Shown piece by piece: positions 19,098-60,557 of a stretch of DNA of 64,000 bases. Each line of letters starts with the position of its first letter. The first letter of the stretch is position 1. A program made the position numbers and the translations under genes. Where the stretch lies: positions 512,001 through 576,000 of the forward strand of contig CAWFJP010000014.1 of assembly GCA_963816145.1 (NCBI GenBank). Reading direction: 5' to 3'. The stretch is from an uncultured delta proteobacterium. Its GTDB lineage: Bacteria; Desulfobacterota; Binatia; UBA9968. The notes beneath the pieces were generated by a model. It did not search any database. It was not told where the DNA came from and saw nothing but the letters and a program-made list of their open reading frames with translations.

Positions 19098-20153
19098 ATG
19101 ACTCATCTCTCTAAAGTTTTGTTTGCGGTCGCATGGTTGTGCGTAGGCGTGGTTCCGATCGAGGGGGCGACGCTGCCGGAAGTCGTAACCCAGGTCGAGA
19201 AAATGAGCCGCGCGGAGCGCGAAGCTTTTCTCATCAAGGGCGCCAGGGAAGAGAAGGACGTGATGTTTTACGCCACCACGCCGGTCAATCAGGTGGCGGT
19301 GCTCAAGAAGTATTTCAGCGCGCGCTATCCCTTTGTCGACTTGAAGCACTACTACTCGCCGCGCCAGGGGATTCTCAACAAGACTTTGGCCGAGTACCGC
19401 GGCAACGCCAATCTCGTCGATGTCGTCATGACCGACGTGAGTTACGGCACGGTGTTGATGAAAGAAGGGGTGTCGGGCGCCTATTCGACGCCGGATATGC
19501 AGCGCTATGTGCGCGGTTCTTACGATCCCAAAGGCCAATGGTACACGATGTACATGCTGACCACGGCGCTGGTCTATAACCGCAACCAGATCAAGCCCAA
19601 TGACGCGCCGAAAACCTATCAGGATCTGCTCGACCCGAAATGGAAAGGGAAAATGATCTTCGATCCCGAGGCGGCTTTTATCATGGCCGCGATGGAGCAG
19701 GCTTGGGGCAGAGAGAAGGCGCGCGACTATCTGGCGCGCCTGGCCAAGCAGGATTTGGTCTTTCGCCGCGGCACGACCTTGACCTCGCAACTGGTAGCCG
19801 CTGGCGAGCAACCGATCGGTGTCACGATCAACGCCGAGACCACCGCGGATATGCGCGACAAAGGCGCGCCGCTGGGGTTCAGCGTACTGCCGCCGCGAAT
19901 CATCAAGCCCAATGGGTTTTTCGTTGCGAAAAAAGCGCCGCACCCGCACGCGGCTTTGTTGTTCACCGATTGGTCGTTGTCGGAAGAAGGACAAAAAGTT
20001 CTAGCCGTGGATTTGGGCAAAGGCGTCGCAATGAAGGGCATCCCGTCCAAGTACAAAGAATTCCAAGGCGAGCCCGACTACGTCGTCGGCCCCGAGTTCG
20101 GCAGCCAGTTGAAACAACATATGACGGAGTTTCAGAAGATTTTTGGGATGTAG
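19098..20153 (+). CDS. extracellular solute-binding protein (AfuA/Fe3+-polyamine class)
   Basis: Signal peptide, GAREEK.V.FY, PKTYQDLLDPKWKGK, APHPHAALLF.DW.LS.EGQ. Confidence 0.9.
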   Translation: MTHLSKVLFAVAWLCVGVVPIEGATLPEVVTQVEKMSRAEREAFLIKGAREEKDVMFYATTPVNQVAVLKKYFSARYPFVDLKHYYSPRQGILNKTLAEYRGNANLVDVVMTDVSYGTVLMKEGVSGAYSTPDMQRYVRGSYDPKGQWYTMYMLTTALVYNRNQIKPNDAPKTYQDLLDPKWKGKMIFDPEAAFIMAAMEQAWGREKARDYLARLAKQDLVFRRGTTLTSQLVAAGEQPIGVTINAETTADMRDKGAPLGFSVLPPRIIKPNGFFVAKKAPHPHAALLFTDWSLSEEGQKVLAVDLGKGVAMKGIPSKYKEFQGEPDYVVGPEFGSQLKQHMTEFQKIFGM

Positions 20154-20313
20154 AGTCTGGAATAGTACCGCAAACGGTGGACGGGGTGTTCATCGCCGCC
20201 GGGGCTGTTCCCGTTGTCATCGTCGTGCTCGGGGGCTATAACTCGATGCGCCAATCGGCCGCAGATTCACGGTCGAGCGGATCCTAACCTGGCGTGTCTT
20301 GATTGACATTCCC

Positions 20314-20811
20314 ATGGCCGGAAAAATTCACGCTTACCTCGCCGACGAACACCGCCGGCTCGATGGCCTGCTCGATCGAGTCTTCTCCGATTCGGAAACG
20401 ATCGACGCCGCGGCCTACGGGCAATTCCGCACGGGATTGCTCAAGCATATCGCCATGGAGGAAAAGATCATTCTTCCGGCCGCACAGAAGAGGCGCGGCG
20501 GTGCTCCGCTCGCGGTGGCGGCAAAACTGCGGCTGGATCACGGCGCGCTGACCTCGTTGCTGGTTCCGACGCCGACGGCATCGGTGGTCGCGGCGATTCG
20601 GGCGATACTCAAGCTCCATAACTGGCTCGAAGAAGATCCCGGCGGCATGTACGATCAGTGCGAGGAATTGGCGGGCGCTGATGCCGAGCAGATTTTGCAA
20701 CAGTTGCGCGACGCGCCAGAGGTCAGAGTCGTGCCCAATGTCGATGGCCCGCATATCATGGAAGCCGCGCGCCGGGCATTGGCAAGAGCCGGATACGATT
20801 TTGTTCTGTGA
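20314..20811 (+). CDS. hemerythrin domain protein
   Basis: EH.RLD.L, HIAMEE.I, DH, HN..EE. Confidence 0.85.
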   Translation: MAGKIHAYLADEHRRLDGLLDRVFSDSETIDAAAYGQFRTGLLKHIAMEEKIILPAAQKRRGGAPLAVAAKLRLDHGALTSLLVPTPTASVVAAIRAILKLHNWLEEDPGGMYDQCEELAGADAEQILQQLRDAPEVRVVPNVDGPHIMEAARRALARAGYDFVL

Positions 20812-20911
20812 GCGATTCGCGTTGATACTGGGAACAGACAAGGGGATATCCAAAATTTCAAGGTTCGAAGTTCGGCTCCTGTGTTGATTGGTCCGGGGAA
20901 AGGATGTGTCG

Positions 20912-21027
20912 AAGGCGAGCCCGACTAATTTGTCGGTCTAGAGTCCGGCAACCAGTTGAAGCAAAATATGACGGACTTTTAGTTAGAAGGTATTGCGGAT
21001 GTGGCGTCTGCAGAGTAACGCAAACGG
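20912..21027 (+). pseudogene. degenerate direct copy of the 3' end and downstream spacer of the SBP gene (20065-20177)
   Basis: aaggcgagcccgacta..gtcgg..gagt.cggca.ccagttgaa.caa.atatgacgga.ttt..agaag...gatgt...cgcaaacgg shared. Confidence 0.85.
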
Positions 21028-21067: not shown

Positions 21068-21120
21068 TTGACCGTATTCCGCTGGCGGGGTATTTTGAAA
21101 TAGACCAGAATCATGGTCGA
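21068..21120 (+). promoter_or_regulatory. promoter and palindromic operator of the Phd/RelE operon
   Basis: TTGACC-17-TATTTT followed by the inverted repeat GACCA-gaatca-TGGTC. Confidence 0.55.
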
Positions 21121-21137
21121 TGAGAGGCAAGGCTCCA

Positions 21138-21431
21138 ATGTCTAAAACAATGCCAATTTCAGAAGTTAAAACGCGGTTGCCCGAGCTGGTCTCCGGAGTA
21201 GCGGAGCGAGAAGAAGAGATCGTGGTAACACGCAACGGTAAGCCAGCTGCGGTCTTAGTTAACTACGACGACTACGAGCGTCTGAAAGACACCCTCGATG
21301 TACTGAGTGATCCGGTTTTGATGAAGCAGATCAGTCAGAGCAAACGCTTTTACGCCAAGGGACGACAGGGGCACTCCTTTGAAGCGGTCTTTGGCGAACC
21401 GCTTGTTGTGGTAAAACGCCGGAAAAAATAA
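21138..21431 (+). CDS. Phd/YefM family antitoxin
   Basis: PISEVKTRLPELV..V...EEIVVTRNGKPAAVLV..DDYE.L..TL..LS.P. Confidence 0.93.
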   Translation: MSKTMPISEVKTRLPELVSGVAEREEEIVVTRNGKPAAVLVNYDDYERLKDTLDVLSDPVLMKQISQSKRFYAKGRQGHSFEAVFGEPLVVVKRRKK

Positions 21432-21727
21432 TGGCCGCCTACCGGCCCGATATCCCTCCGCACATCGTGGAAGTTATTCGCCACTTGCCGCCGGACGTTA
21501 AACGCAGCGTTAAGCAAGCATTAAGATCTTTGAGCGCCGATCCACTTGTCGGCACGCCCCTCAAGCGGGAATTATTACGGCTGAGGAAATTCACAGTCAG
21601 ACGATTTCGCATTGTTTATGAGCTTGATCGCAACGCTCGTGTTATTAGGATATTTGCGATTGGTCACCGTCGGGACGTTTACGAAGAAATAGCCGACCGA
21701 TTGCGTCGAGTTGCCCGGGGAAAATAG
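21431..21727 (+). CDS. RelE/ParE family toxin
   Basis: L.ADP..G.PL...L..LRK..V.RFRIVY......I.AIGHRRDVYE; TAATG coupling to the antitoxin. Confidence 0.92.
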   Translation: MAAYRPDIPPHIVEVIRHLPPDVKRSVKQALRSLSADPLVGTPLKRELLRLRKFTVRRFRIVYELDRNARVIRIFAIGHRRDVYEEIADRLRRVARGK

Positions 21728-23737: not shown

Positions 23738-23914
23738 TTACGTAACAAAATACCCACCCACCACCGCCTCTTTCCAGCTCTTAATCACTGACGGTACAAT
23801 TCCCGCTGGTAAGTTTTTTTCCGGTTTCCAAAAACTATGCACGCCGGCGCCGAAGCGGGTGATGGCGGTTTTTGGCGCAGGCTTCATGGCGCGGAAGCCG
23901 GGGATGAGCACTTC
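23738..23914 (-). pseudogene. in-frame diverged copy of the last 58 codons plus stop of CDS 24584-25939
   Basis: Gap-free alignment with 24584-24760; by hand 20 synonymous and 4 non-synonymous codon differences. Confidence 0.95.
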
Positions 23915-23984: not shown

Positions 23985-24215
23985 ATGAAGACAGTGCAAA
24001 TAACCTTAGACGATAGTCTGGTAAAGGCGGTCGACAGCGCCGCGAAGAAACTCGGAACAACTCGATCCGTCTTTACGCGCGAAGCCCTGCGATCCGCTCT
24101 TAAAGGTGTTCGGGTTAAGAACATGGAGTCCAAGCATCGCGCGGGCTATAAGCGCAAGCCGGTTAAGCGCGGCGAATTTACTGACTGGGAGTCGGAGCAA
24201 GTGTGGGGTGACTGA
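23985..24215 (+). CDS. ribbon-helix-helix (CopG-like) antitoxin
   Basis: MKTVQITLDD.L...VD..A..LG..RS...REAL; promoter-like TTGAGT-18-TATGAT at 23920-23949. Confidence 0.9.
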   Translation: MKTVQITLDDSLVKAVDSAAKKLGTTRSVFTREALRSALKGVRVKNMESKHRAGYKRKPVKRGEFTDWESEQVWGD

Positions 24216-24526
24216 TGAAAAGAGGAGAGGTTCGATGGTACGTTTTTGCTCGCCCAGACAAGGAGCGGCCGGTTCTGATTCTGACACGGGATTCAGCGCT
24301 GGGATTCCTCGGCGAAGTAACCGTTGCTCCCATTACATCGACGATTCGCGACATTCCCTCTGAAGTCTTGCTGACGAAGGACGATGGCGTGCCGCGAGAT
24401 TGTGCCGTCAATCTCGACCATCTCCAGACGGTTTCCAAAGGGAAAATCGGTTCTCTGATCACGACTTTAGGTAGCGGCAAGATGCAACAGGTGCACGCGA
24501 GTTTGCAATTCGCTCTGGGATTCTAG
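24215..24526 (+). CDS. PemK/MazF family endoribonuclease toxin
   Basis: MKRGEV.W......K.RPVLIL, VTVAPITS, VNLD.LQTV.K. Confidence 0.93.
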   Translation: MKRGEVRWYVFARPDKERPVLILTRDSALGFLGEVTVAPITSTIRDIPSEVLLTKDDGVPRDCAVNLDHLQTVSKGKIGSLITTLGSGKMQQVHASLQFALGF

Positions 24527-24583: not shown

Positions 24584-25939
24584 TTATGCAACAAAATACC
24601 CGCCCACCACGGCTTCTTTCCAACTCTTGATCACCGACGGCACGATGCCGGCCGGTAAATCTTTTTCCGGTTTCCAGAAGCTGTGCACGCCGGCGCCGAA
24701 GCGGGTGATGCCGGTCTTGGGCGCCGGTTTCATGGCGCGGAAGCCGGGGATGATTACCTCGGCGTAGACTTCGGGGCTGTGGTCGCGGCTGTCTTTGGAG
24801 ATCTCGAACAGAAACGGCGGCAGCGGTTTTACGCTTGGTCCTGACATTTCCCGGGTGTAGCCGATGAAGCGTTGCACCAGCGCTTCGGTCTCCTCTTTGT
24901 TCATCTTCATTCTTGCTGCGCTGACTCGGGCGCCTTCCGCGAGCGATCCGGTGATGGCGTGGGTGACGAGATACTCGGCTTTGAACTGCGGGCGGTTCTT
25001 GGCGCGCTCCCAGGCCTCGAGCACGTCTTCCATGATCGCCGGCAAACGCATCAGCGCGCTGGGTCCTTCCTGGCCAAGCGCTTCCGGTCCTTGATAGCGC
25101 GCGAGGTCGCGCCAGGTGCGGATGTAAAGTTCGTCGAACGGATCGCTGCGCGGCTTGCCTTGCTTCTCGGGCTTGTCGTAGCCGCTGATCTTGCCGAGTT
25201 CGCCGCCCCAGACATCTCGGCCCGAGCACAGATAGCCGAACGGCGAATTTTCCGTGGCGCAGACGCCGGCCATATTCGGTATGCGTTGCGACAACATGCA
25301 AATGAATGGGCCGCCGGTGGAATGGCCCTGGCCGTAGATGGAAAATTCGCCGATCGGAAAATGGCGCTTGCAGGCTTCGATCATGCCGGCTTCGAACGCC
25401 GCCGGCCATGCGGCCATGCGGTACCAGAAAATCGTTTCCGGCTTCGCTTTGGCCAGTGTGCGGGTGCCGTAGCGGTTGCGCTTGGAGGGGTCTTTGACGA
25501 CGGTGTATTGATCAGGCCCGATCAATTCGCCTTGCTTCCAGATCGGTGTGCGCACGGTGCCGTCGGCATGAATCGTGTCGTCCGGCCAGTCGCGGCTTGG
25601 ATCGGGAAAGTAGAAACGGCCCGGGAAGGTGCCGGCGATGACCCGGCAGCCATACTTGCTGGCGAGCAGCTTGGCATGGCGCTCAATGCCTTTGAAGTCG
25701 CTCGATCCACCGTGCAGGAGAAAAAAGCCGATCTTCTTGCCGTCGGCACCGGTGGGGATTTTGCTAGCGTCCACCGGTTGATGGACGACCATGCCCAGGT
25801 CCCAGTCCATGCCGAGCACGTTGATGCGGAAAATATCCTCGGTGCTGGTGATCGGGATATCGAGCAGGCCCAGGACTTCTTCAGTGTCCTTGATGCACTG
25901 TTCGCGGGAAACGAATTCAGGTGGTTGCCACTGGGTCAT
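24584..25939 (-). CDS. conserved hypothetical protein, probable alpha/beta-hydrolase fold
   Basis: LLHGG oxyanion-like motif and GHSTGG elbow; GC3-rich; AGGAG RBS. Confidence 0.7.
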   Translation of the reverse strand: MTQWQPPEFVSREQCIKDTEEVLGLLDIPITSTEDIFRINVLGMDWDLGMVVHQPVDASKIPTGADGKKIGFFLLHGGSSDFKGIERHAKLLASKYGCRVIAGTFPGRFYFPDPSRDWPDDTIHADGTVRTPIWKQGELIGPDQYTVVKDPSKRNRYGTRTLAKAKPETIFWYRMAAWPAAFEAGMIEACKRHFPIGEFSIYGQGHSTGGPFICMLSQRIPNMAGVCATENSPFGYLCSGRDVWGGELGKISGYDKPEKQGKPRSDPFDELYIRTWRDLARYQGPEALGQEGPSALMRLPAIMEDVLEAWERAKNRPQFKAEYLVTHAITGSLAEGARVSAARMKMNKEETEALVQRFIGYTREMSGPSVKPLPPFLFEISKDSRDHSPEVYAEVIIPGFRAMKPAPKTGITRFGAGVHSFWKPEKDLPAGIVPSVIKSWKEAVVGGYFVA

Positions 25940-37694: not shown

Positions 37695-38669
37695 CTAGGC
37701 GCTCTTGCGCGCGGGCTCTTTCGCCAGCGGGTATTTTGCACAGAGCGTCTTCCAATACGCCGCGATCTTCTTGCTGTTGTCTTTGACTTCATCCGGCACG
37801 ATTCTCCAGGGCGCGCGCAGCGGACCGGCGGTGCAGTAGTCGGCCTCGTTGACGGCGAGTTTGAAGACGTTTTCGCGCCAGACCAGATTGCCGATGTTCG
37901 GCCCGACGCGATTGACGCCTTCGAGATCAAGACAGATCTGCTTGGCGAGTTCCCAGTTCTGCGCAAAGCAGGCATCGCGCAGGGTGATCACCGGTGACGG
38001 CCCCATCCAGACGTTGAACGACCAGCAGCCGGCCGCGCCCATTTGATAGTACGGATACATCTGCGTCTGGTTGACGAAAAGGCTCATCTTGCCCTTGGTG
38101 ATGTTGGTCAACTCGACGAACTGCAGCGGGGTGCGGTGGCTGTCCTTCATGGCGACGATGTTGGGTTTCTCGGTGAGTTTCTTAAAGGCACTGACCGGAA
38201 TCGTCACGCGATGATGCGTCGGGTTGTGGTAGATCATCACGCCCAGTTTCGGCAGCGCATCGGCGACATCGTGATAAAACTGCACCGCGTTATCGACGCT
38301 CGCTTGATAATAGAAGGGCACACCGAGCAACACGCCATCGGCGCCGGCGTCCTGGGCAAACTTCGCCTGGCGAATCGCTTCGCGCGGATTTAAATTCGTA
38401 CAGCCGATAAACAGCGGCACGCGCTTCTTGTTCGCCGCGACGGTCGCTTCGATCAACTTCTTATGCTCGTCCCACAAGAGCGTATGAAACTCGCCGAAGC
38501 TGCCGGTGGTGGTCAGAACATTACAGCCGCCGTCCGTGATAATTTTGTCGACCGTGCGCGTCAGTTCGTCGGTATCGACCGTATCCGTCGCATCAATTCG
38601 ATCTCCATCCTTCTTGGTAAACGCCGGCATCATGGTCATGATGCCCTTAAGATCGTTGGAAGTGATCAT
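37695..38669 (-). CDS. DHDPS/NAL-family hydratase-aldolase (NahE/PhdJ-like)
   Basis: TVD.DE..R.V, GSFGE (NahE-type GxxGE), IYHNP, Schiff-base Lys in AMKDS. Confidence 0.85.
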   Translation of the reverse strand: MITSNDLKGIMTMMPAFTKKDGDRIDATDTVDTDELTRTVDKIITDGGCNVLTTTGSFGEFHTLLWDEHKKLIEATVAANKKRVPLFIGCTNLNPREAIRQAKFAQDAGADGVLLGVPFYYQASVDNAVQFYHDVADALPKLGVMIYHNPTHHRVTIPVSAFKKLTEKPNIVAMKDSHRTPLQFVELTNITKGKMSLFVNQTQMYPYYQMGAAGCWSFNVWMGPSPVITLRDACFAQNWELAKQICLDLEGVNRVGPNIGNLVWRENVFKLAVNEADYCTAGPLRAPWRIVPDEVKDNSKKIAAYWKTLCAKYPLAKEPARKSA

Positions 38670-38962
38670 GAAATTCTCCTTGAGTATATTTTTGCGGATT
38701 CTCTAATAGGCGGGGTGAGGAGTCAAGGCGGCGCGACGCGATTGGCGGCAGAAGGTGCTTCTTTTTACAACGCGCCATTTTTAACACGCACGGTGACTGT
38801 CAACGATCCAGTCGCCATTCGTTGGGCAAACAATTTTGCAAAATCATAAGCGGCGCTGGGCAGCCGGTTACAGAGCGACTGCTGACGAATTCCGCGTCCG
38901 ACGGCAGGTTTGTGGCAACGACGCGCCCGCGGAGATACGGCACAAGACCAGAAAGCGCGCGA

Positions 38963-40294
38963 CTAGCTTTGCGACCCCTCAGGTTTTGGCGCGCATACCG
39001 GTCCTGCGTTTTCTTGGCCTGTCTTGTCTTCATTGAGAGGAAAGTTGTTTGACAGCAACCGCCCCTGCATTGCCGCCACCTCATCGAGAGACGACAACAC
39101 TTCTTTGAACGCAGCCTCGGGCGTGATTGCCATCAAGCAGCGATTTTCCTGGCAAGGCGATTTTTTGCCATTGTAGACAGAAACGCACGGGCTGCAGGCA
39201 AAATGGCTGTACATGTCTTTGTGTTTGTCGCCGATCGGGCTATAGAGGCGCGGTGTTTCCGGCCCGAAGAATACCAACGTCGGCAAACGCAATAGAGAAG
39301 CGAAATGAGCCGGACCGCTGTCATTTGTTACCATAACCGCCGCCAATGAATAGAGCGCGAGCAGTTCACGAAAGTTTGTCATGCCCGTGAAATCGACGCA
39401 GCGCGAACTCTGAACTCGTTCGAGGATATATTTGGCGTCCTCTTTCTCTGATGAAACGCCCGTGATGACCAGCGCGCAACGAGGGATTTTCTCTAAGAGC
39501 TGACAACATAGTTGGCCGTAATTCTTGAGCGGCCATTTTCTCAGTGGAAATATGTCCGATGAGTTAGGGTTTATTAGTATGACAATGCTGCTATCCGGTT
39601 CTATGCCGGCTGATCGCAGCTTATGACGGACGCTCGTCAGGTCGGCGGCTTCCGGTATATGCTGCAGACCGGTTAATTCTCTTGGGTTTACTGAACCACG
39701 GTAATAAGGCTCGTCGTTCGGCTTTTGGAACAAGCTTCTTACAAGCGACGTAAAGGCCGCGCTAGTGTGGATGTGGGGTGAATAGAGCACTCGGTGCGTA
39801 AGGAGATCGCCACGGTATAGACCCTCGTCGTTATAGCGGTGAAATCCGACGCGGTTGCCTCGGCAAGCAACAAAGCTGATCAACATCGTCAACCGGCTAA
39901 AAAAATCCATGTCGATCGTGCTGTCGATCCGCTCTTTGAAAAGTCGCTGCATTGCTTGCAAGCCGCTCTGCATCAATGTCCCAAGCGTGCGATGATCGAC
40001 CCTGATGATATTTTCGCTCGGCGCAAGCTTTAGGATTTCCATGATGGCCGCGTTTTTCGCAAAAACCAAGAAATAAAACTTAACATCCGGACAACGACGC
40101 TTAAGCTCTGCCAACGCCGGGTACGCCAACACCGTGCTGCCCATTTCCGAGAGCTTGATAATTAAAACCTTCTGCGGCTTGGGCAGAACCGGGTTCGGGC
40201 GGATAATAGAGTCGATGCGACGGATGAATGAAAAGATCCAACATAGCGGGATCCCGAGGTAACGGTCGATCCATCTCAGCGTGTCAATCTGCAT
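38963..40294 (-). CDS. glycosyltransferase family 9 (heptosyltransferase-like)
   Basis: IIKLSEMG, LRKWP, TNDSGPAHFA..L..PT..FFGP. Confidence 0.9.
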   Translation of the reverse strand: MQIDTLRWIDRYLGIPLCWIFSFIRRIDSIIRPNPVLPKPQKVLIIKLSEMGSTVLAYPALAELKRRCPDVKFYFLVFAKNAAIMEILKLAPSENIIRVDHRTLGTLMQSGLQAMQRLFKERIDSTIDMDFFSRLTMLISFVACRGNRVGFHRYNDEGLYRGDLLTHRVLYSPHIHTSAAFTSLVRSLFQKPNDEPYYRGSVNPRELTGLQHIPEAADLTSVRHKLRSAGIEPDSSIVILINPNSSDIFPLRKWPLKNYGQLCCQLLEKIPRCALVITGVSSEKEDAKYILERVQSSRCVDFTGMTNFRELLALYSLAAVMVTNDSGPAHFASLLRLPTLVFFGPETPRLYSPIGDKHKDMYSHFACSPCVSVYNGKKSPCQENRCLMAITPEAAFKEVLSSLDEVAAMQGRLLSNNFPLNEDKTGQENAGPVCAPKPEGSQS

Positions 40295-40316
40295 GAAGTT
40301 ATACCTTCGCCGCCGG

Positions 40317-42365
40317 TTATTTCGCGCCTGGTACACGAGGCTTGGAATCGCGGTCCCGACTTTTGCGAACTTTCTTCGTGTTTTCCCCCGGACCGCGGTA
40401 CCCATATCCAACGCGCCAATAGAAATGACCCATTACTCGACCATTTTTCTCCAACACTTCACGGAAAACCTCGCCGGTCGAGTCGAAATACCGTGACAAA
40501 GAGGGCCTGCCGAGTCTGTTTCGATCGAAATCGATCATGAGAAAATTCCTGCCAACCGCCGCCGAAGGGGGAAGCCAAAAAGCCCACATGACGCTGCGCC
40601 CGCCAAAAAAATGAGGCCCACCTGTATTGAAAGCTGCGTCATTATCCACGAAATCGTAAAAACTCACCTCACTCGCAATGAAACGATTGTCCATTCCAAC
40701 GAGAATTGCTTCAGACTTCGTTTCAGCCTCGACGACCGCCTCAATTGCTTGTACCTTCTCACCCAGCAGCCGCCACGGCCCGAACAGACGTTTCAAAGAG
40801 ACGGTACCGGTGCCGGGCAATCCTAGCGCGATATAATTAAATGCCGCGCCGTGAATAATAACGAGACCGATGATGGTTGGCATCCACAATCTTCCAATTA
40901 ATTTCGCCAATGATCCTGAGATCTCATGCAGGCGCGGCATCATGTCCCAGGCGAGCAAAGGAATCGCCGCAAGCCAGATCGGTGCCGTCCAGTTGAGCTT
41001 GATCTGATTGCGCACGCTGTAAATTACAAATACAGATAGCGGCAATAAGGTAAAGATAAGTGCCCAGAGGTAGCGCCGGCTCTCGGCGGCGCTCTGATTG
41101 GCGCCTGGCGCTCTCATCATGCTTCGCGGTAGGAGAACCTCGACGATGCCAAAACAGCCGGTTGGAGTCAGTAGAAGGAATATAGAGCCAATGAGTATGT
41201 GCAGGGAGAACCTGGGGGCACCCGCCCAACGATCAGGGCCCTGGAACATAAACGAGACCCAATCGTGTTTCATGTTCCAGATCAGCACCGGAGTGAAAAA
41301 CGCAAGGGCGACGATGGCTGCGAAATAAGGCTCAGGTCGGAACAGCCATCGTCGGGATGGCTGGTCCAGGAGCACAAATATCAAAGTTCCCAGGCCCAGT
41401 AGGGCGATGGTGTATTTCGATAGCATTCCGACTCCCATGCAAATACCGACTCCCCACCATGCTTTTTGATTTTGGCCTAGAAGAGCACGTTCCAAAAAAT
41501 AGAGACACCCTGCCCACGCGGCGTATAGAGGGGCGTCCGGCGTCATGAAGAAGCCGAGTCCGAAGTAAATCGGCAAAACAGCCAAGAGTAAGATCGCTCG
41601 TACGGCAGCTGTCCTATCAAAAAGATTCAGCGTGAGGCGGAACATGAAGAGCGCGGCAATGATCCAGCAGATAAAGGCCGGTAGCCGAACCGAAAACTCG
41701 GATTTGCCAAGTACAGACGTGGAAAGCCAAATTAACCAAGCAACCATCGGCGGATGGTCCAGATAGCTTAAATCCAAATGCTGGGCGTAGTTCCAGTAAT
41801 AGGCCTCCTCTGGGATCAGATCCACGAGCGCCATCAACGTTAGCTTCAGCACCAATAGGTAAACCAGAATCACAATCGTGATCAGCGGCCAGCGAAGAGC
41901 CGGCACCTCATCGGACCCGCACTCAGGAAAAACGAAAAGAGCGATACCGATGAAAAGCACAGTAGCGCCGATAATAATCGCGCCCAGGATGGCTGTCTGG
42001 GGTTGCAAGTGCCAGTTGCGGATAAACAGCAACAGAACGGCGCTCCGAAGAAACAAAGCGATTAAAGACACCGTCATGAATCGTCCATACGGTCTCCATA
42101 TCGGCGCTGCGCCAAATGTAACGGGTTGTGCAAGACTTGGGCGAATGTTCAGAGCGAAAATGAAGATTGCGCCCAAGATAAAACTTGCCGCTTGAGACAG
42201 CTCTGTGTTGACGCCCTTGGCAATGAGTACGTGAAACACGACAAGATCGGTGACCAAACCCACCAGGAAAAAAGCCGCGAACTGTTTGTTGGCGTGCCGG
42301 CTCAGCAACCGAATTAGAATCGAAGCTGTCGGCCAGCCCGCACTATTGGATTTCTTTTGCTCCAT
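40317..42365 (-). CDS. GtrA-domain / ArnT-PMT_2 (GT-C) membrane glycosyltransferase fusion
   Basis: N-terminal 4-TM GtrA-like segment; EEAYYWNYAQHL..SY.DHPP, TPD.P, LSKY. Confidence 0.87.
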   Translation of the reverse strand: MEQKKSNSAGWPTASILIRLLSRHANKQFAAFFLVGLVTDLVVFHVLIAKGVNTELSQAASFILGAIFIFALNIRPSLAQPVTFGAAPIWRPYGRFMTVSLIALFLRSAVLLLFIRNWHLQPQTAILGAIIIGATVLFIGIALFVFPECGSDEVPALRWPLITIVILVYLLVLKLTLMALVDLIPEEAYYWNYAQHLDLSYLDHPPMVAWLIWLSTSVLGKSEFSVRLPAFICWIIAALFMFRLTLNLFDRTAAVRAILLLAVLPIYFGLGFFMTPDAPLYAAWAGCLYFLERALLGQNQKAWWGVGICMGVGMLSKYTIALLGLGTLIFVLLDQPSRRWLFRPEPYFAAIVALAFFTPVLIWNMKHDWVSFMFQGPDRWAGAPRFSLHILIGSIFLLLTPTGCFGIVEVLLPRSMMRAPGANQSAAESRRYLWALIFTLLPLSVFVIYSVRNQIKLNWTAPIWLAAIPLLAWDMMPRLHEISGSLAKLIGRLWMPTIIGLVIIHGAAFNYIALGLPGTGTVSLKRLFGPWRLLGEKVQAIEAVVEAETKSEAILVGMDNRFIASEVSFYDFVDNDAAFNTGGPHFFGGRSVMWAFWLPPSAAVGRNFLMIDFDRNRLGRPSLSRYFDSTGEVFREVLEKNGRVMGHFYWRVGYGYRGPGENTKKVRKSRDRDSKPRVPGAK

Positions 42366-42389
42366 TTCGCGCTCCAAGAGAGATTGCTC

Positions 42390-42758
42390 AGGAAACTCTG
42401 AACAAGTCACTTGAGGTGTAGTTTTTTACCGCAAAACAATAACAGTGACAACGGGAGGAGAGTCAAGGAGCAGACAAGATTTGCAGGTTTCGATTGGGCG
42501 GTAAAGAAAATGCAGACCAAGCGAGAAAAGTTACTATCGGTGATCGATCGAGTGATGCCGTGGGATAAACCGGTGGGGTTGATCGAACCGCATTATCCTA
42601 AAGCCAGCGCTGGACGACGACCGACGAAGTTGGAACGGATGGTGCGGCTTTACTCTGTGCGGCAATGATACGAGCCGAGGCAGCACGATCTTAACCTGTC
42701 AGCGTGGAAAAGCATGGATTGACCGAATCGTTTTTGCAAGAAGTCAACGATTATGTGA
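42390..42758 (+). pseudogene. IS5-family transposase remnant with a possible left end
   Basis: K..TKREK.L...DRV.PW.....IEPHYPK...GR....LERM.R, then LEKHGL..; GGAAACTCTGAACAAG at 42390 resembles an IS5 terminal IR. Confidence 0.75.
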
Positions 42759-42760
42759 GC

Positions 42761-43040
42761 GATCAATTTCTTATGCTCGTCCCACAAGAGCATAGGAAAC
42801 TCGCCGAAGCTGCCGGTGGTGGTCAGTACGTTGCAGCCGTCGTCGGTGATAATTTTGTCGACCGTGCGCGCCAGTTCGTCGGTATCGACCGTATCCGTCG
42901 CATTCATTCGATCGCCATCCTTCTTGGTAAACGCCGGCATCATCGTCATGATGCCTTTGAGGTCATTGGAAGTAATCATTCGAATCTCCTTGAATTGGTT
43001 TTGCCGGATTCTCTTATAGGCGGCGGAGGGAGTAAAGGCG
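42761..43040 (-). pseudogene. diverged direct copy of the upstream region and first 73 codons of the aldolase gene (38451-38730)
   Basis: Gap-free alignment at offset 4310; ~12 synonymous and 6 non-synonymous changes. Confidence 0.95.
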
Positions 43041-43087
43041 AGTTTGGGGTGATTTGCGCCAACCATCGCTTCTGATTACAATGCGCC

Positions 43088-43639
43088 ATGGATTTTGAGT
43101 TAGTTCTCAAAACATTGCTCGATGAGTTCACACGCCTTAATATCCGCGCCGCGGCGATTGGCGGTTTCGCGCTCGGGGTATTGGGTGTGCCACGCCAGAC
43201 ATTGGATTTGGATTTCTTAATCCACCGCGACGATCTGGAAAAACTCGACGAAGTACTGGCCCGCCGTGGCTACCGTCGAGAATTTCACTCGGAAAATGTG
43301 TCGCAATATCGCCACCCCAATGCTGCGTGGGGATCGGTCGATTTCATTCATGCATTTCGAGAAATCTCTCTTGCCATGCTCGAGCGGGCCAAAGATTATC
43401 CAACACTCGGCGGCAGCCAAAGCCTCAGGACGGTGCAACCGGAAGATGTTATCGGCCTGAAGGTCCAAGCTTTGTGCAACGATCCCGCGCGCAAGGCGCA
43501 GGAGCAATCCGATATCGAACGGCTCATGGCTCGCTACGGGCACGAACTGGATTGGCAACGAATTCAAGAATTTTACGACGTCTTCGGTTTGGCCGATGAC
43601 GCGAAAAAACTAAAGGCGAGGTTCGACCGTGCTCAGTGA
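43088..43639 (+). CDS. Pol-beta-type nucleotidyltransferase (AbiEii/DUF6036-like)
   Basis: IGGFA......RQT.DLDF, VDF, EDVIGLK.QA...R...D. Confidence 0.82.
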   Translation: MDFELVLKTLLDEFTRLNIRAAAIGGFALGVLGVPRQTLDLDFLIHRDDLEKLDEVLARRGYRREFHSENVSQYRHPNAAWGSVDFIHAFREISLAMLERAKDYPTLGGSQSLRTVQPEDVIGLKVQALCNDPARKAQEQSDIERLMARYGHELDWQRIQEFYDVFGLADDAKKLKARFDRAQ

Positions 43640-55537: not shown

Positions 55538-55559
55538 CGCGTTAGCTGCCGGTCGTGGG

Positions 55560-55700: not shown

Positions 55701-55749
55701 GGAGCTGGTCGCGCGGAGCTGCGTCGTTTAGCCAAACATAACTCACCCA

Positions 55750-55857
55750 TCATTTGCGTCGTTTCGTCGCTTTCATCCACGGGATCGGCTTGCCAAGAAG
55801 CGAACTTGGACCGATCAGAGAGGGTGTTTGTTTATAGCCCGGGAGTTTTAACCGTTC
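55750..55857 (-). pseudogene. diverged direct copy of the last 35 codons plus stop of the caspase-fusion gene (58788-58895)
   Basis: 108-bp gap-free alignment; 5 synonymous and 4 non-synonymous differences. Confidence 0.93.
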
Positions 55858-56006
55858 ATATCATTTCATTCGGACTAGGAATGTGAAGTTTGCCACGGCG
55901 AATCCCTTTAGCGGATGTCCACGTTTCATGCTTGGTTCATGTGTGACTCTGGTTAAAGCGATTCAAAAGTGCCCGAAAGCATTGCTACGATGACCTCCGG
56001 TCGGCG

Positions 56007-57068
56007 TTAACTTAATGCGACCCCTTTCTCCAGCAGAGCTTTAATCATCACCGCGGCGCCGCATTGCAGCGATACAGCCTGCGGATCGAATTGGCCGTCG
56101 GCAACATACTTTCCCTGTTCATAGTGATTCGAAAAACTCCATAAATAAGGAGTAGGCAAACGTTTGTTGCGATAACCGAAGCCGTTGAATTTCTCAAGCA
56201 GGTAGAGCATGTGAGGTATCGACCAGTCGGTAACGCTAGCCAGACCATCCAGTTTCAACGCGTCAGCTGCACTTTCTTCCCATTGGAAGGGTGGTGTGCC
56301 ATCGCGAGGTTGACCAGCGGGGACATGAGTAGTTTGTCTCGTTAGCGGATCGCCATTGTGCAAATGGCAAGCGAAGTTAAAGCCGCATTCCATGGCATGG
56401 ATGATCCCGACCATTGCCCATGGAACATTATTCACACTGGAACTGACGGACTCATAACGGCTCTGGTTTTTGAGTAACTGCTTAATATGCCAGTCGACTT
56501 TACTTTGTTGCTCCGCTTTGATGGCCATCGTTTCGAAAAACCGCTGGTATTCCAAGCGCAGGACTGTGAAGTCTTTACTGGTGTCTATGGTCAAATCGGT
56601 CGCCGGTATTTCAGGTGTTGATGGGGAACTAGGCGGCGCCGGCGGCGGGGGCGTTGGTTGGGTTGTTCTCGATGGAGGGACGGTTGTCGTACTGGAGGTG
56701 GATTCGGGAGATGCGGGTGGAGGTGTAGCCGGCGGATCAATCGCCCGAGGTGAAGGTTCTGAAAGCTCTCCGTTCCGGAGCAGTTGATGGGTCCGAGTAA
56801 TTACTCCTTCGATCGCTTTGACGAAGTCATCAAAGGGACCTAGACGCGCGCTGTTTACCACTCGTTCGAGCGAGATAGTCGCCCTTTGAATGGCATTCGC
56901 TGCATCTTGCAGGTCCGCCTGATTAATTCGTGCTCGAATATTGTTTAGTTGGTTGATAGCGTCAGTAATCGTAGCTTGTTCGGTAGCGTCGGTAGTCTGG
57001 CTGAATCGGTCGGTCAAGACATTTAAGGCTTCAGTGAGTTTTCCTCGCGCTTCGTTCTGGATTCCCAT
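56007..57068 (-). CDS. lysozyme-family (COG5526-like) protein with helical N-domain and Pro/Thr linker
   Basis: IH.ME..F.F..HLHNGDPL...T.HVPAG, WEESA.DAL, E..NG.GY, PYLWS, GKYVADG.FD. Confidence 0.82.
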   Translation of the reverse strand: MGIQNEARGKLTEALNVLTDRFSQTTDATEQATITDAINQLNNIRARINQADLQDAANAIQRATISLERVVNSARLGPFDDFVKAIEGVITRTHQLLRNGELSEPSPRAIDPPATPPPASPESTSSTTTVPPSRTTQPTPPPPAPPSSPSTPEIPATDLTIDTSKDFTVLRLEYQRFFETMAIKAEQQSKVDWHIKQLLKNQSRYESVSSSVNNVPWAMVGIIHAMECGFNFACHLHNGDPLTRQTTHVPAGQPRDGTPPFQWEESAADALKLDGLASVTDWSIPHMLYLLEKFNGFGYRNKRLPTPYLWSFSNHYEQGKYVADGQFDPQAVSLQCGAAVMIKALLEKGVALS

Positions 57069-57130
57069 ATTTTTAGCCTCCTCTTATGGCTCTCCAATGT
57101 CGTCGCCGGGCGTTGGCGATTACCCTGACT

Positions 57131-58048
57131 TTAAGCCCCCGCCCCGCGCAGGGTTGAATAGACCCTCCTCCATGTATCGGCATGCGCTGCCAGGCGAGCA
57201 GACTTCTCGGCGACAAAGGCGACGGACGCTGGGTTGCTGGGTTGCTGTACCGCCGTTACTAACTCGTCAAAGGTGTTTTGTAACTGCCCGAGCAGAACAA
57301 CGTAGTTAGAGACGACGATGCGGTAGTTTGAAATGCGATCCAAATGGTTTTTAGCAATTACCGGACTCTTCAACGCGTCGGCACTTGTTATACCTTTTAC
57401 AGATTGAAAAATTAGCGTGTTAAAAACTGCTGGCGCCCCATCTCGTAAACTTATCACCAACCTTTTCACATGGGGGGCCCCGGCTAGAACGAGGCGATTC
57501 ATCTCCTCGACATTCTTACGCTGAGCCGCGTCTCTAATGATCGGATCGAGTGCTGCGAGCGCTCCCGTAAATGCCGCGCCGCCTCCCGGTCCTGCCCCCA
57601 TAGCAATCAGTGCTGCAATGTTTCCACCGAGGTTTTGTATCTGCGCCGAGGTTTCGTCTAGATTGCGGCCTTCGGCGAGAGTCAATAGGACTTCCGAATA
57701 TCGGCCTATCAGGCGAATACCATCACGAATCCGTCGCGTTGTCGGTGGATCGCCGATTTCCGAATAATAAGGCGCGTCGGTAGTGCAGTAGCCATCGATG
57801 AACCCGACTTTGGCCCACTGTATCCCGGCACATTCCCCTTGAAAAGTGTTGTCTTTCGCGTTGGCTTCGGCGACAGTCTGACCCTGTCGCCGTTCCGCGA
57901 TGGCTAGGTCATCGAATAACGGCTGACTCGCCTCGTTGAAGGTGATAAAGGCGTTGTTAAAGAACCGGACTTCTTGGACTGGTGCTACAGCGCAGCTCGC
58001 TATTACTAAGAGCATGAGCGGAAGCGTGAAATTTAGACAGCGTTTCAT
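57131..58048 (-). CDS. putative lipoprotein
   Basis: MKR..hydrophobic..IASC lipobox; helical-looking body; directly upstream of the lysozyme-like gene. Confidence 0.7.
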   Translation of the reverse strand: MKRCLNFTLPLMLLVIASCAVAPVQEVRFFNNAFITFNEASQPLFDDLAIAERRQGQTVAEANAKDNTFQGECAGIQWAKVGFIDGYCTTDAPYYSEIGDPPTTRRIRDGIRLIGRYSEVLLTLAEGRNLDETSAQIQNLGGNIAALIAMGAGPGGGAAFTGALAALDPIIRDAAQRKNVEEMNRLVLAGAPHVKRLVISLRDGAPAVFNTLIFQSVKGITSADALKSPVIAKNHLDRISNYRIVVSNYVVLLGQLQNTFDELVTAVQQPSNPASVAFVAEKSARLAAHADTWRRVYSTLRGAGA

Positions 58049-58269
58049 CGTGCCCCGATCTGAGTATTCGTGACGTTGGATTGTCATGTTTTTCTCCTAA
58101 CTCATGCGTCCGTTGTGATAACGACTTCTGGTGAGTTCTCTATTTTTAGCAGTCCCCCATTGGAAGTATTTTTGCAGCAACAATAAGGCGAACAAGTGTC
58201 GACCGTGAATTTTACCTCGTTGGGACTAAAAAGTCAGTAGTAACTTTACTTCGATTCGGACCCGATCAT

Positions 58270-58560
58270 TTTGTGTCGCCCGCCCCGGAGTGTGACGAAA
58301 GCTTGGCAGCAGCTAGCCATAAGCGAGCCTTCGATTTCGCTCCATCTAAAGGAGTTACAACAGCACTACAGGACAATCTGTTTCGCAGGGCTTGGAATGG
58401 GGTGGTGCTCACTGCGGAGGGACAGGACTGTCTGCACCGGGTCGTTCCGATCCTCGATCAGTTGGCGGAGATGGAGAAGGGCGCTTGGGTAACCCAAAGT
58501 AAGGACACTTCACCAATGCTCCGGGTCGGCAGTTCTGGTGCCGAAACTATTAGCGCGCAC
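58270..58560 (+). pseudogene. LysR N-terminal HTH fragment
   Basis: SVTKA.QQL.ISEPSIS.HLKEL, then LF.R...GV.LT.EG...LRVG in another frame. Confidence 0.7.
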
Positions 58561-58787
58561 GCGCCAGTAATATCCCGGTGTGGATCTTGAGAGTCGGACC
58601 CGGACTTCGGACCAGCTCGAACGGATGCTTTTGCTGTCATTGTTGGACTTGGCCGTGACCGGAACGAGCGCGGCGGACCGCAGTGAAGAGTTCAAAACGT
58701 TCAACTCGTTCAACCACTGCGCTCCATTCAAAACGTGTCGGACAGTGAATGATTGATGCCCTAAGGGTTCTGGCGGTTCGAAACGCC

Positions 58788-60557
58788 TCATTTGCGTCGT
58801 TTCGTCGCTTTCACCCACGGAATCGGCTTGCCAAGAAGCGAACCTGGACCGACCAATGAGGGCGTTTGTTTGTAGCCCAGGAGTTTTAACCGTTCGGCGG
58901 TGAGTTTGGTCAACCTGCGGAAGTTGGGATTAGCGCCTTTCTTGCGGGTTTCGCGCAAGATTTTCGCCAGGGCAAAAGTAAACGCGCCGTAGGAGTTGGC
59001 GCCGTCGCGGTACTCGTAAGAGAGTTCTTCTTCCTGGCAGGCTTCGACGATAATCGGCAAGTAAGCGCCATGATGATCGAGCTCTTTGCGCTCGCGATCG
59101 TAACGGTTGTTTGGCAGGCCGCGCAGGGAGACGCCGCGGCCGAGGCGGTGGGTCGCGCCGTTGGCGCCAAGAAACTGGGCGCCCTCGGATGATCTCGCCA
59201 ATGAGCGATTGGCTGTCTGTAAGTCGCGATCCTCCCACATTTCGAGCTCGCTGTTCCAACGCAGGGCGCGATGACGAATATCGTCCGGCGGGTTGATGCC
59301 GCGGGCACGCGGGCCGCCGTCGCGGCTCATGCCGCCTGAGTGACAGCAGTCGAAGATTGCCGCGAAGCGCGATTCGTAGGGCAGTTGGCTGTATAGGTTG
59401 ACGAACTGATTGTCGATGATGGCGCGCTGCGGGCTCCAGTCGAAATCGTGCGGCACTAGACACTCGTCATAATGGTCAACCTCCTCCTTGCTGCCGTAGG
59501 CGGGGATCTGCGCGCCGTGGCCTGAATAGAAAAGCACCCGTTCGTCGCCGCTTTGCACATCGTCAAGCAACCAGTGAAGCCGCTCCATGATACTGGCGGC
59601 GGTGGCTCGCTCGTTGAGGACGACGCGAATGTCTTCGGGGCGATAGCCGCATTCTTGCAGCACCGAACTCATCAAATAGGTGTCGTTGACGCAGCCTTCC
59701 AGGCAATTTGCCGGATTCGGATATTCGTTGATGCCGATCAACAAGGCGCGCCGGGCGGGCGGCGTCGTGAGCGCGCGGGTCGAGCGCAGCTCGCGCGTCA
59801 AAGCTCGCGCTACCTGGGCGCTGGCGACTTCCGGCCACACCCGAGCTTGGGTGTTGGTGTGGTTAAAATAGTAAAGCGGGTCATGGTTGAGCACGTCGTT
59901 GGGCTTGTCGAAGTCGGCAACGATCTGGGCGAAATTGGCGTCTTCGAGTTTAATTCTCGCGGTAAAAACATTGTCGTTTGAGTTATAAAGATGAAACCAC
60001 ATGCGCGCGTCGAGCGCTTCGATGCGTCCGGCAAAGCAATCGCGGACAAATGGGTTGCCGATCTGGGATCCGAAGGTCAGCAGTATCTTGTTATTCAGCG
60101 TGCCGGGGGTTCGGCGGCAAGTGTCGTAGGTGATCAATGAGCCAAGACTATGGGCAGCGATGACGTCATAAGAATCTGCCGCGAGTTTGGCGAGTAGCCG
60201 CTTGCGCAGCGCTGCGCGCAGGTCGTCTTCAGAAGCCCATTGCGCGACCATGCCCGCGGTCCAACGGATCTGTTCCGGCAAATCGAAGAGCCCCCGGCTT
60301 CCCGGCAACAGATCGCCGATGCCGTGGAACACGCCGCTGGCCAGAAGCTTCGCAAAGGCTTTGCCGTAGGTGACGGGGTCGTGCGGGGCGTGATCGAACA
60401 GATCGTCGTAGGTAAAAAAATCGCAGGTCACCGTGGCGTCAGCTGCCCAGCGCTGAATGTTTGCCGTGATCGCATTTGTCCACGACGGCACGAGATTAGG
60501 ATCGTCGTCGCCATGACCGACCCCATGGATGCAGAGAATGTTTAGTTGTTTGGGCAT
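58788..60557 (-). CDS. alpha/beta-hydrolase (lipase-like) domain fused to a caspase-family (C14) peptidase
   Basis: IHGVG, AHSLGS, TFGSQ; then ALLIGINEY, L.GC.ND, YSGHG, FDCCHSG, GAFT. Confidence 0.88.
   Translation of the reverse strand: MPKQLNILCIHGVGHGDDDPNLVPSWTNAITANIQRWAADATVTCDFFTYDDLFDHAPHDPVTYGKAFAKLLASGVFHGIGDLLPGSRGLFDLPEQIRWTAGMVAQWASEDDLRAALRKRLLAKLAADSYDVIAAHSLGSLITYDTCRRTPGTLNNKILLTFGSQIGNPFVRDCFAGRIEALDARMWFHLYNSNDNVFTARIKLEDANFAQIVADFDKPNDVLNHDPLYYFNHTNTQARVWPEVASAQVARALTRELRSTRALTTPPARRALLIGINEYPNPANCLEGCVNDTYLMSSVLQECGYRPEDIRVVLNERATAASIMERLHWLLDDVQSGDERVLFYSGHGAQIPAYGSKEEVDHYDECLVPHDFDWSPQRAIIDNQFVNLYSQLPYESRFAAIFDCCHSGGMSRDGGPRARGINPPDDIRHRALRWNSELEMWEDRDLQTANRSLARSSEGAQFLGANGATHRLGRGVSLRGLPNNRYDRERKELDHHGAYLPIIVEACQEEELSYEYRDGANSYGAFTFALAKILRETRKKGANPNFRRLTKLTAERLKLLGYKQTPSLVGPGSLLGKPIPWVKATKRRK

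Follow-up and report, generated by a model that had tools for sequence, protein, structure and literature searches.

Accessory genes between duplicated gene ends in an uncultured Candidatus Binatia-type soil genome: recurrent scars suggestive of integrase-free gene gain

The stretch of DNA analyzed here, hereafter the window, comprises 64,000 nucleotides (nt) of the genome of an uncultured Candidatus Binatia-type soil lineage (C14:512001-576000 of G000, a 7.82-Mb assembly in 31 contigs with 56% G+C), and it holds four places where accessory genes are enclosed between the end of a resident gene and a diverged second copy of that same end. We refer to these loci as scars R1 to R4, to the gene whose end is repeated as the host, to the copy that still forms its terminus as the live copy, to the other one as the orphan, and to the DNA in between as the cargo (Table 1). 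A previous sequence-only reading had pointed out the four scars; our analysis confirmed the observation and supported in part its interpretation, which was right in kind, namely recurrent scars of gene gain without an integrase. In what follows, G000 is the source genome, other G labels designate its relatives, C labels contigs, and X labels metagenome runs; two more loci of G000, C29:199274 and C3:412232, were traced in relatives along with R1 to R4.

Every pair consists of an orphan and a copy that forms the live terminus of a long open reading frame (ORF); the four repeats are all direct, 108-330 nt long, the live copy always occupies the end of its gene that points towards the orphan, and every pair passed E <= 1e-6 in a 40-kb self-BLAST, within a few bases of where it had been placed before. 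Gapped BLAST alignment of the R1 pair gave 77.5% identity over 120 nt (91.5 bits), and a repeat search delimited its core (20062-20135/20909-20982, 82%). The R2 copies are 85-86.5% identical over 170-177 nt (204 bits) and those of R4 90-92% over 108-113 nt (155 bits). The R3 repeat (84% over 330 nt, 358 bits), with a core of 281 nt at 88% (38450-38730/42760-43040), reaches ~50 nt further upstream than initially described, and stops at the start codon of the adjoining nucleotidyltransferase gene. As had been proposed, the hosts are unrelated and both kinds of terminus are used: 3' ends in the solute-binding protein (SBP) gene, the gene for a 451-aa protein and the caspase-domain gene, and a 5' end in the aldolase gene.

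Table 1. Genes and repeat copies at and around scars R1 to R4, in positions of the window.
Feature	Position	Strand	Support or remark
RAYT-like (REP-associated tyrosine transposase) ORF	18411..19013	+	NCBIfam NF047646, E 3.6e-17 (below cut-off); Pfam Y1_Tnp, E 1.2e-6
Degenerate REP-like hairpin	~19052-19081		With the RAYT-like ORF, left edge of the variable region holding R1 and R2
SBP gene, R1 host, 3' end used	19050..20153	+	Pfam SBP_bac_8/6/11/1
R1 live copy: final ~90 nt of SBP gene plus 24 nt downstream	20062..20177	+	
R1 cargo: hemerythrin-domain gene	20299..20811	+	Pfam PF01814, E 2.4e-6
R1 orphan: SBP end, decayed (stops, indels)	20909..21027	+	
PhD/YefM antitoxin and ParE toxin pair, directly after R1 orphan	21120..21727	+	Pfam
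R2 orphan: 3' end of 451-aa gene, frame and stop codon kept	23738..23914	-	
R2 cargo: RHH antitoxin (23985-24215), MazF/PemK toxin (24215-24526)	23985..24526	+	Pfam
451-aa gene without known family, R2 host, 3' end used; live copy 24584-24760	24584..25939	-	
DHDPS-family aldolase gene, R3 host, 5' end plus upstream used	37695..38669	-	Pfam PF00701
R3 live copy: first 220 nt of aldolase gene plus 110 nt upstream	38450..38778	-	
R3 cargo: GT9 glycosyltransferase (38963-40411), GtrA and PMT_2 fusion (40317-42410); 42376-42759 unassigned	38779..42759	-	Pfam
R3 orphan: aldolase 5' end plus upstream region, ancestral context beside nucleotidyltransferase gene	42760..43089	-	
NTP_transf_5/AbiEii-like nucleotidyltransferase gene flanking R3 orphan	43088..43639	+	Pfam
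R4 orphan: 3' end of caspase gene	55745..55857	-	
R4 cargo: two ORFs without a family (56007-57068, 57131-58087); weak LysR-like fragment (58273-58590, +)	55858..58782	-	
Caspase-domain (Peptidase_C14) gene, R4 host, 3' end used; live copy 58783-58895	58788..60557	-	Pfam

Among the names given earlier to the cargo, hemerythrin, RHH-MazF, GT9 and GtrA-PMT_2 were borne out by Pfam, whereas the lysozyme-like protein and the lipoprotein of R4 had no Pfam or NCBIfam support, and neither had the term hydrolase for the R2 host. The LysR piece retained weak NCBIfam matches (E 2.5e-4) and nothing firmer. An IS5 remnant in R3 was not verified, as the genome has a single copy of segment 42376-42760 and Pfam gave no match for the one ORF scanned in it (42411-42668). 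The R3 cargo genes are co-oriented with the promoter region of the R3 orphan. Furthermore, genes of the toxin-antitoxin (TA) type do lie in or beside three of the four scars, as had been noticed: PhD/ParE by R1, RHH/MazF in R2 and the NTP_transf_5/AbiEii-like gene by R3 (all by Pfam). A candidate small-alarmone-synthetase TA pair is located between the R1 and R2 orphans (21804-22891, minus strand), formed by a RelA/SpoT-domain protein of 259 aa and a 103-aa ORF directly downstream.

The same arrangement recurs throughout the genome. G000 was compared with itself by BLASTN in overlapping 40-kb pieces (E <= 1e-6, pairs 150-15000 nt apart), retaining repeats of 70-600 nt with at least 72% identity and exactly one copy within a long ORF, and pairs were classed as facing (repeat at the ORF terminus towards the orphan), away (at the far terminus) or internal (at neither end). 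Local pairs were 1684 direct vs 225 inverted; after the filter, direct pairs numbered 91 facing, 39 away and 58 internal, and inverted ones 10, 7 and 10, respectively, while at >= 80% identity the corresponding figures were 55, 16 and 21 for direct and 2, 3 and 4 for inverted pairs. In 379 other pairs both copies fell within long genes, G000 being rich in tandem paralogue arrays. Once hosts in such arrays were dropped and one pair per host was kept, 49 facing, 20 away and 10 internal pairs were left (facing vs away, binomial P = 6e-4), with 38 of the 49 facing cases at 3' ends and 11 at 5' ends. The pattern is therefore common and not rare, as the earlier proposal had anticipated; medians are 140 nt for repeat length, 84% for identity and 3.3 kb for cargo, and repeats at scars vary from 48 to 449 coding nt. 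The outer repeat boundary falls at most 6 nt from the stop codon in 10 of 38 scars at 3' ends, a figure of which we made no use, since faster divergence of non-coding DNA could explain it. With four pairs vs 0.74 expected from the genome average (Poisson P = 0.007), the window is a local hotspot for scars. In small samples of 400 kb, from which no lineage-specific excess is claimed, facing pairs numbered 1 in the congener G014, 0 in G037 (another family), and 5, 1 and 3 in three stretches of G000.

At 20 further scars the cargo is ordinary, including UPF0182, FadL, MFS, acyl-CoA dehydrogenase, luciferase-like monooxygenase and carbonic anhydrase genes, and the hosts include genes for a class I Glu/Gln-tRNA synthetase, ThyX and shikimate dehydrogenase. 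Small TA-like pairs were also found in the cargo of further scars (DUF4258/DUF2283, HTH_3, DUF4160), with PIN/AF2212 and Gp49 nearby.

Profile scans of ORFs in the window (59, 36 and 20 in three partly overlapping scans) detected no integrase, DDE transposase, resolvase or reverse transcriptase family, the exceptions being the RAYT-like ORF and an HTH_17 ORF; the assertion that the window encodes no recombinase consequently stands for integrases, DDE transposases and reverse transcriptase in the scanned ORFs and needs qualifying for these two. The HTH_17 ORF (32969-33178, 69 aa), of excisionase-like fold, has no integrase nearby. Around the 20 further scars, Pfam recognized a recombinase in 0 of 150 ORFs. 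The 11 genomic matches to tyrosine recombinases (PF00589) all lie outside the window; serine recombinases were looked for through the general Pfam scans of ORFs in the window and at the 20 further scars, and did not turn up there. The genome encodes a ComEC homologue and no Ku. Reverse transcriptases (RVT_1) have three matches in the genome, on C31, C4 and C11, none on the contig of the window, 2 of the 91 facing pairs having such a match no more than 10 kb away; mismatches between copies are spread over the four bases with no adenine bias, even for the pair beside the reverse transcriptase on C4.

Three candidate systems were rejected on these and related grounds. A diversity-generating retroelement was discarded as no reverse transcriptase lies on the contig and the mismatches are not adenine-specific. 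Duplication of an integrase att site was discarded given the missing PF00589 match in the window, the unrelated targets and the variable breakpoints. C-terminal displacement as in Rhs, contact-dependent inhibition (CDI) and type VI secretion system (T6SS) loci was discarded as the hosts are an SBP, a 451-aa protein, an aldolase and a caspase-domain protein, and the displaced ends are near-copies of the live ones. The scars are insertion scars and not site-specific att sites, and a recombinase in cis is not needed, in agreement with the original proposal.

Integrase-borne islands are known to carry a spare gene end, as phage 21 and e14 do at icd. The scars could stem from dedicated, site-specific integration in trans, in which small non-autonomous islands carrying a replacement gene end are moved by integrases, by a RAYT-like enzyme or by an unknown system encoded elsewhere. 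The RAYT-like ORF and hairpin bordering the variable region that holds R1 and R2 would suit such islands, as would the 3 of 91 facing pairs that lie within 10 kb of a tyrosine recombinase gene; nevertheless, the other 88 pairs have no PF00589 match within that distance, the 150 ORFs at 20 scars hold no recombinase, the targets are dozens of unrelated genes with repeats of very variable length, the breakpoints of G000 and G004 differ at the same gene (C3:412232), and the copies are sisters rather than foreign copies borne by an element. We consider this explanation very improbable, and the unknown dedicated mechanism envisaged at the outset is not needed.

Relatives revealed what several sites look like without the cargo. 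Among 17 relatives having the R3 aldolase, none carries the cargo or a second copy, and two of them (G009 and G046) run from the aldolase through the upstream region into NTP_transf_5 with no cargo, the homology of the R3 live copy ending at the start codon of that gene. Five closer relatives have also lost the NTP_transf_5 gene, and the nearest homologue of the R3 cargo, 75% identical, is at another locus, in G014. At C3:412232, the host gene is contiguous with the neighbor of the orphan in G013, G012, G017 and G002, and the G000 orphan stands in that ancestral context. Moreover, G004 has its own orphan of this NMT1-family gene end (C7:51800-56900; 181 nt, 84.5%; 3254-3434/4071-4250 of that stretch), with breakpoint and cargo that differ from those of G000, so the gene end was hit more than once, independently. 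At C29:199274, two convergent host genes, H and Z, abut in four relatives (G021, G044, G006 and G045), and G000 reads, from one side to the other, H live end, cargo, Z' orphan, cargo, H' orphan, cargo, Z live end. Empty-site alleles, for which the sequence-only reading had proposed a search, were found at R3, C3:412232 and C29:199274, with the orphan in the ancestral context.

At the remaining scars the relatives are more varied. The end of the R2 host was recovered in 17 relatives, one with an orphan and 16 with a single end whose downstream context differs; G005, an unpublished genome, is one of the 17, and no claim depends on it. On its left, the variable region of R1 and R2 is bounded exactly by the REP-like hairpin in G007, which joins the hairpin directly to the 451-aa gene and so is without 19081-24592, and in G022, which joins 19080 directly to 21066; G002 has the SBP and hemerythrin genes followed by the 451-aa gene, with no orphans. 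For R4, G002 joins 55535 to 61833 and is without the entire 6.3-kb block, and in G044 both cargo genes accompany the caspase gene but an orphan was not detected. The caspase gene itself is 72% identical between G000 and G044 and the flanking genes are 82-83% identical, suggesting allele replacement or fast evolution. A clean empty site was not found for R1 or R4 among the relatives examined.

Since G000 is a metagenome-assembled genome, we considered whether chimeras of strains or species had produced false partial duplications, a worry already raised by the sequence-only reading. The fragmentation into 31 contigs, an estimated contamination of 6.7% and the fact that R1 and R4 lack independent confirmation could be taken that way; however, the R2 scar recurs in the independently assembled G003, a separate species-level genome (~86% identical over the stretch), with identical orphan breakpoint and cargo. 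The R3 region is present in 20 metagenome runs from 18 studies, four of which runs were compared; contigs of X5 (38595-39918) and X7 (38604-41535), from two other studies, span the junction from aldolase to cargo, and a contig of X4, a soil metagenome run, links the cargo (42669) to the orphan (42799) through a 129-bp deletion of the cargo/orphan junction. X1 had no contigs over 38642-41911 and none joining across that gap, and no empty allele is claimed from it. Furthermore, the copies enclose unique cargo and differ by 8-22%, which errors of overlap merging would not be expected to yield, and similar scars exist in G004 and, once in 400 kb, in G014. Misassembly is thereby ruled out for R2 (G003) and R3 (metagenome contigs), and as a general explanation it is scarcely credible.

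Trees bearing on how the repeats originated pair the orphan with the live end as its sister at C3:412232 (support 97/95; branches 0.11 for the orphan vs 0.02), at C29:199274 (84/88; 0.13 for the orphan vs 0.086) and at R3 (87/76). For R2, the ends from G000 and G003, four in all, cluster weakly (84/67) within a well-supported group of nine genomes, and approximately unbiased (AU) tests on 177 nt reject neither the two orphans together (p 0.47) nor the live end and orphan of G000 together (p 0.11). The R4 copies are 92% alike, and the orphan is 77% identical over 91 nt to the orthologous end of G014, the sole one that aligned, the G044 and G006 alignments stopping before the 3' end of the caspase gene. 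Sliding-window identity along the aldolase gene showed no switch at the repeat boundary, a mosaic scan of that gene and its neighbor gave patchy nearest relatives as in a recombining population, and the TPR/LysM gene likewise showed no switch at its repeat boundary. From the sister placement and the absence of an identity switch, the two copies seem to have arisen by duplication of the target, resident or conspecific, with subsequent decay of one of them, and not by import of an allele from another species.

Changes polarized with outgroups point in the same direction. Given as counts at first, second and third codon positions, they are [9,9,10] orphan-derived vs [2,0,8] intact-derived at C29:199274, [6,4,14] vs [0,0,4] at C3:412232 and, by a hand tally from the site table, roughly [1,3,2] for the orphan vs [0,0,5] for the live copy at R3, where changes private to one copy or the other are interleaved. 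At these three polarized loci, changes in the orphan fall on all codon positions in the manner of a pseudogene and live-copy changes are nearly all at third positions, the live copy staying under purifying selection and the distal copy decaying.

The sequence-only reading had proposed that cargo arrives attached to a diverged relative's gene end, which replaces the resident end by a crossover in the gene body, the illegitimate join on the other side stranding the resident end as an orphan. The topology fits this proposal, the orphans keep their old neighbor, and donor-type arrangements of gene plus cargo without an orphan exist for R1 (G002), R4 (G044) and C29:199274 (G010 and G002). In addition, the R3 upstream parts are further apart from each other (72% identity) than either is from G019 (about 79%), the orphan frames at R2 and R3 are intact and their differences strongly biased to third positions, and homology-facilitated illegitimate recombination (HFIR) has been put forward for orphaned 3' ends at T6SS, Rhs and CDI loci, in PMC5361080. 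Against it, the trees of three loci pair the live copy with the orphan inside the G000 lineage, both copies fall in one small clade at R2, identity does not switch at the boundary in the aldolase or TPR/LysM gene, polarized orphan changes are pseudogene-like, and an excess of third-position differences could also reflect synonymous substitutions in the live gene and subsequent exchange of its alleles. A foreign live end with a resident orphan, as HFIR between diverged lineages would leave, is not what was found; replacement of the resident end by a relative's allele is not supported wherever the tree resolves, and we regard this origin as unlikely.

The explanation that we hold to be slightly on the probable side is that each scar is the footprint of a duplicative insertion, an insertion with long target duplication made by host recombination. 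Acquired DNA is joined at the terminus of a resident gene, with 50-450 bp of target (gene end with or without spacer) on both sides; the distal copy remains beside the old neighbor and the copy on the gene body keeps the gene intact. The joining would be carried out by host general recombination, with no enzyme encoded by the element, through one of two topologically equivalent routes: a circle bearing the cargo together with a copy of the gene end could integrate at that end by one crossover (Campbell-type), or a linear fragment could enter by one homologous exchange and one illegitimate, microhomology-guided join (HFIR), which would give the same product where the illegitimate join falls upstream of the end of homology. 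The incoming copy of the gene end would come from the same lineage, either a conspecific donor or the resident itself, and presumably not from another species. The product has the topology of a tandem duplication with one unit carrying foreign DNA. The bias towards gene ends would arise because a working gene is left only where the duplication includes a terminus, and short or diverged repeats and addictive TA cargo may resist loss by repeat recombination, leaving such scars as the survivors.

Several findings are those expected of an insertion of this kind. All four inserts are flanked by direct repeats of more than 30 bp; both repeats align to one copy at the empty site of relatives at R3, C3:412232 and C29:199274; the cargo ORFs include no mobility gene in Pfam scans; and the repeats are sisters derived from the resident target at three loci, R2 being weakly resolved. 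Where the R4 orphan meets the cargo, the flank of the G044 cargo resembles the sequence of the gene itself over a short imperfect stretch (5 of 7 bases), as at illegitimate joins.

Other observations weigh against this explanation. The two R3 branches are equally long (live 0.087 vs orphan 0.083). Differences between live and orphan copies amount to [3,1,22] at R2 (20 synonymous vs 4 non-synonymous codons) and [2,3,13] at R3, an excess at third positions beyond what duplication within the lineage and neutral decay would predict; the third-position share is >= 0.6 in 9 of 43 cleaned scars, and <= 0.42 in 14 of 43. The R2 orphans of G000 and G003 differ by [5,5,22] and the live ends by [0,0,18], the former having too few first- and second-position changes for neutrality since the species split, which hints that some copies were separate functional alleles, or that one copy was overwritten by later homologous exchange. 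After the R2 orphan, G003 retains degraded remains of a second MazF copy (269 nt at 85% and 84 nt at 86%), an arrangement that fits a larger tandem duplication at least as well. Neither a circular form, nor an excision joint, nor donor and recipient arrangements in one population were seen, and a repeat-to-repeat joint was not found among 15 of 16 joints in four metagenome runs. Independent-assembly support was not found for R1 and R4, microhomology could be examined at one junction (R4 vs the donor-like G044), and the census gene calls are longest-ORF heuristics in which pairs of one locus are not independent.

Possible reasons for the third-position excess are later exchange that overwrote the live gene or the orphan, donors of distinct alleles, and composition-driven mutation; third-position differences are mildly asymmetric in GC/AT direction (224 vs 175). 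Genome-wide, the third-position share is 0.55 in facing, 0.43 in away and 0.57 in internal pairs, and 3 of 43 cleaned scars exceed a generous bound of 0.6 for origin in situ at P < 0.05. As a test between an in-situ and an allelic origin, codon positions at R2 and R3 seem suggestive, not decisive.

An origin in situ would have the gene end and its neighbors duplicated in tandem, with later loss of the second unit, or the orphan left over from a tandem paralogue. The sister relationship of the copies agrees with it, as do the remnants of a second MazF in G003, the order H, Z', H', Z at C29:199274, as in a tandem duplication that covers the ends of both convergent genes, and a genome rich in tandem paralogue arrays and broken genes. 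Yet each scar would then require three events (cargo gain, duplication and precise loss) at dozens of loci, and relatives display cargo-free adjacency at R3, C3:412232 and C29:199274, none of them having two full units or paralogues. Decay of paralogues further predicts as many facing as away pairs, unlike the 49 vs 20 of the cleaned set, and in G000 no remnant of a second cargo was found after the R2 orphan by blastn (word size 7) or tblastn. We therefore rate an origin in situ as unlikely, and continue to lean towards duplicative insertion by host recombination.

One may further conceive that the gene-end repeats act as portable homology arms: recombination between repeats would free a circle of cargo with one conserved gene end, and a single host crossover in a relative would remake the scar. 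This extension is improbable in our estimation. If true, the virus-like cycle proposed for restriction-modification systems would extend to TA pairs and ordinary accessory genes, it would be a major integrase-free route of gene capture in large soil genomes, and the functional-looking orphans of R2 and R3 would be the recipient's own end, captured at the latest re-integration.

Elsewhere in the window, a family of ~41-nt intergenic repeats with a palindromic core occurs in both orientations (14741-14781, 26421-26461, 30663-30703 and 37477-37517), probably as REP/BIME-like hairpin modules. A multi-copy element of ~280 nt lies at 25980-26310 (~26015-26293), with copies at 85-93% identity on C1, C3, C18 and C29 and in several congeners; metagenome contig depth reaches 300-600 over 25562-26215 vs ~10 in neighboring bins, and the element resembles a repeat of the MITE or REP-array type. 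In three of four metagenome runs, contigs pass straight from 34830 to 37481 and lack the 2650 nt in between; the skipped 34831-37480 holds two tandem amidohydrolase paralogues (69% mutual identity), which are a presence/absence variant at the population level. Broken genes are represented by two tandem ABC_sub_bind genes, each split into two ORFs (50182-52228), and by a sigma-54 response regulator broken over three overlapping frames (54213-55537). At the right edge of the window (63551-63762) there is a perfect tandem array of a 7-nt unit (reported period 14) in ~25 copies.

In this uncultured lineage, gene gain beside conserved genes often leaves a recognizable footprint of host recombination, with ~50-90 footprints in one 7.8-Mb genome vs very few that are integrase-linked. 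The footprint is a simple, countable marker of integrase-independent gene acquisition, and orphan ends could serve to date insertions, locate hotspots and flag pseudo-ORFs that annotation pipelines may call genes. The suggestion of a routine, integron-free route of gene capture holds insofar as the scars recur genome-wide; a new mechanism is not revealed, this kind of scar being already in print in PMC2853133. Our literature search found such precedents and no paper giving a genome-wide census of these scars at ordinary genes.

When compared with known systems, the scars share features with several of them. As in att duplication by islands and prophages, a direct repeat of a gene 3' end flanks the insert and the gene stays intact, but such islands need a cognate integrase and a fixed target, whereas the scars of G000 have no integrase in the window, unrelated targets and variable breakpoints. 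As with a diversity-generating retroelement, a gene 3' end and a copy 75-95% identical to it lie within a few kb, although the retroelement requires a reverse transcriptase and adenine-specific mismatches, and the scars show neither.

Among systems driven by homologous recombination, C-terminal displacement is reportedly treated by Jackson et al. in 2009, HFIR by de Vries and Wackernagel and by Prudhomme et al. in 2002, and insertion with long target duplication by Nobusato et al. in 2000 (Gene 259:99). At Rhs, CDI and T6SS loci, incoming modules push the old 3' end downstream and leave strings of orphaned ends, for which one-sided homologous recombination is proposed and which PMC5361080 attributes to HFIR. 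The displaced ends of those loci are different toxin domains with immunity genes, in a system whose purpose is diversity; those of G000 are near-copies of the ends of conserved housekeeping or metabolic genes, and the cargo is unrelated to the host.

Closer in topology are single crossover and HFIR, which yield a gene, a partial duplicate of its end and an insert between them, host recombination being sufficient. In the E. coli conjugation experiments, as given in PMC3240628, a circular molecule that included part of the lacZ end had entered by single crossover in 56 of 60 recombinants, 14 sequenced clones had 109-950 bp of that end duplicated, and true HFIR was rarer. The illegitimate joins of HFIR have microhomology of 3-10 bp, and its classic products carry deletions, not duplications; the single-crossover case concerns laboratory plasmid substrates, whereas the scars of G000 are known from sequence, with no circle or donor seen. 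Tandem duplications made by transformation are also documented in pneumococcus, according to PMC3784515.

The nearest likeness is to insertion with long target duplication, in which, as set out by Furuta, Abe and Kobayashi in 2010 (PMC2853133), restriction-modification systems with no mobility gene lie between target duplications of 30-420 bp, and for which a virus-like cycle of insertion, amplification and release was proposed. In both cases, accessory genes stand between direct repeats of more than 30 bp with one copy at the empty site, the insert has no transposase or integrase, some repeats overlap a gene 3' end, and the cargo is often addictive. The published cases have restriction-modification cargo, repeats mostly 93-100% alike and few occurrences per species, whereas G000 has TA pairs together with ordinary metabolic, transport and envelope cargo, repeats 75-92% alike, a live terminus nearly always included in the repeat, and ~50-90 cases in a single genome.

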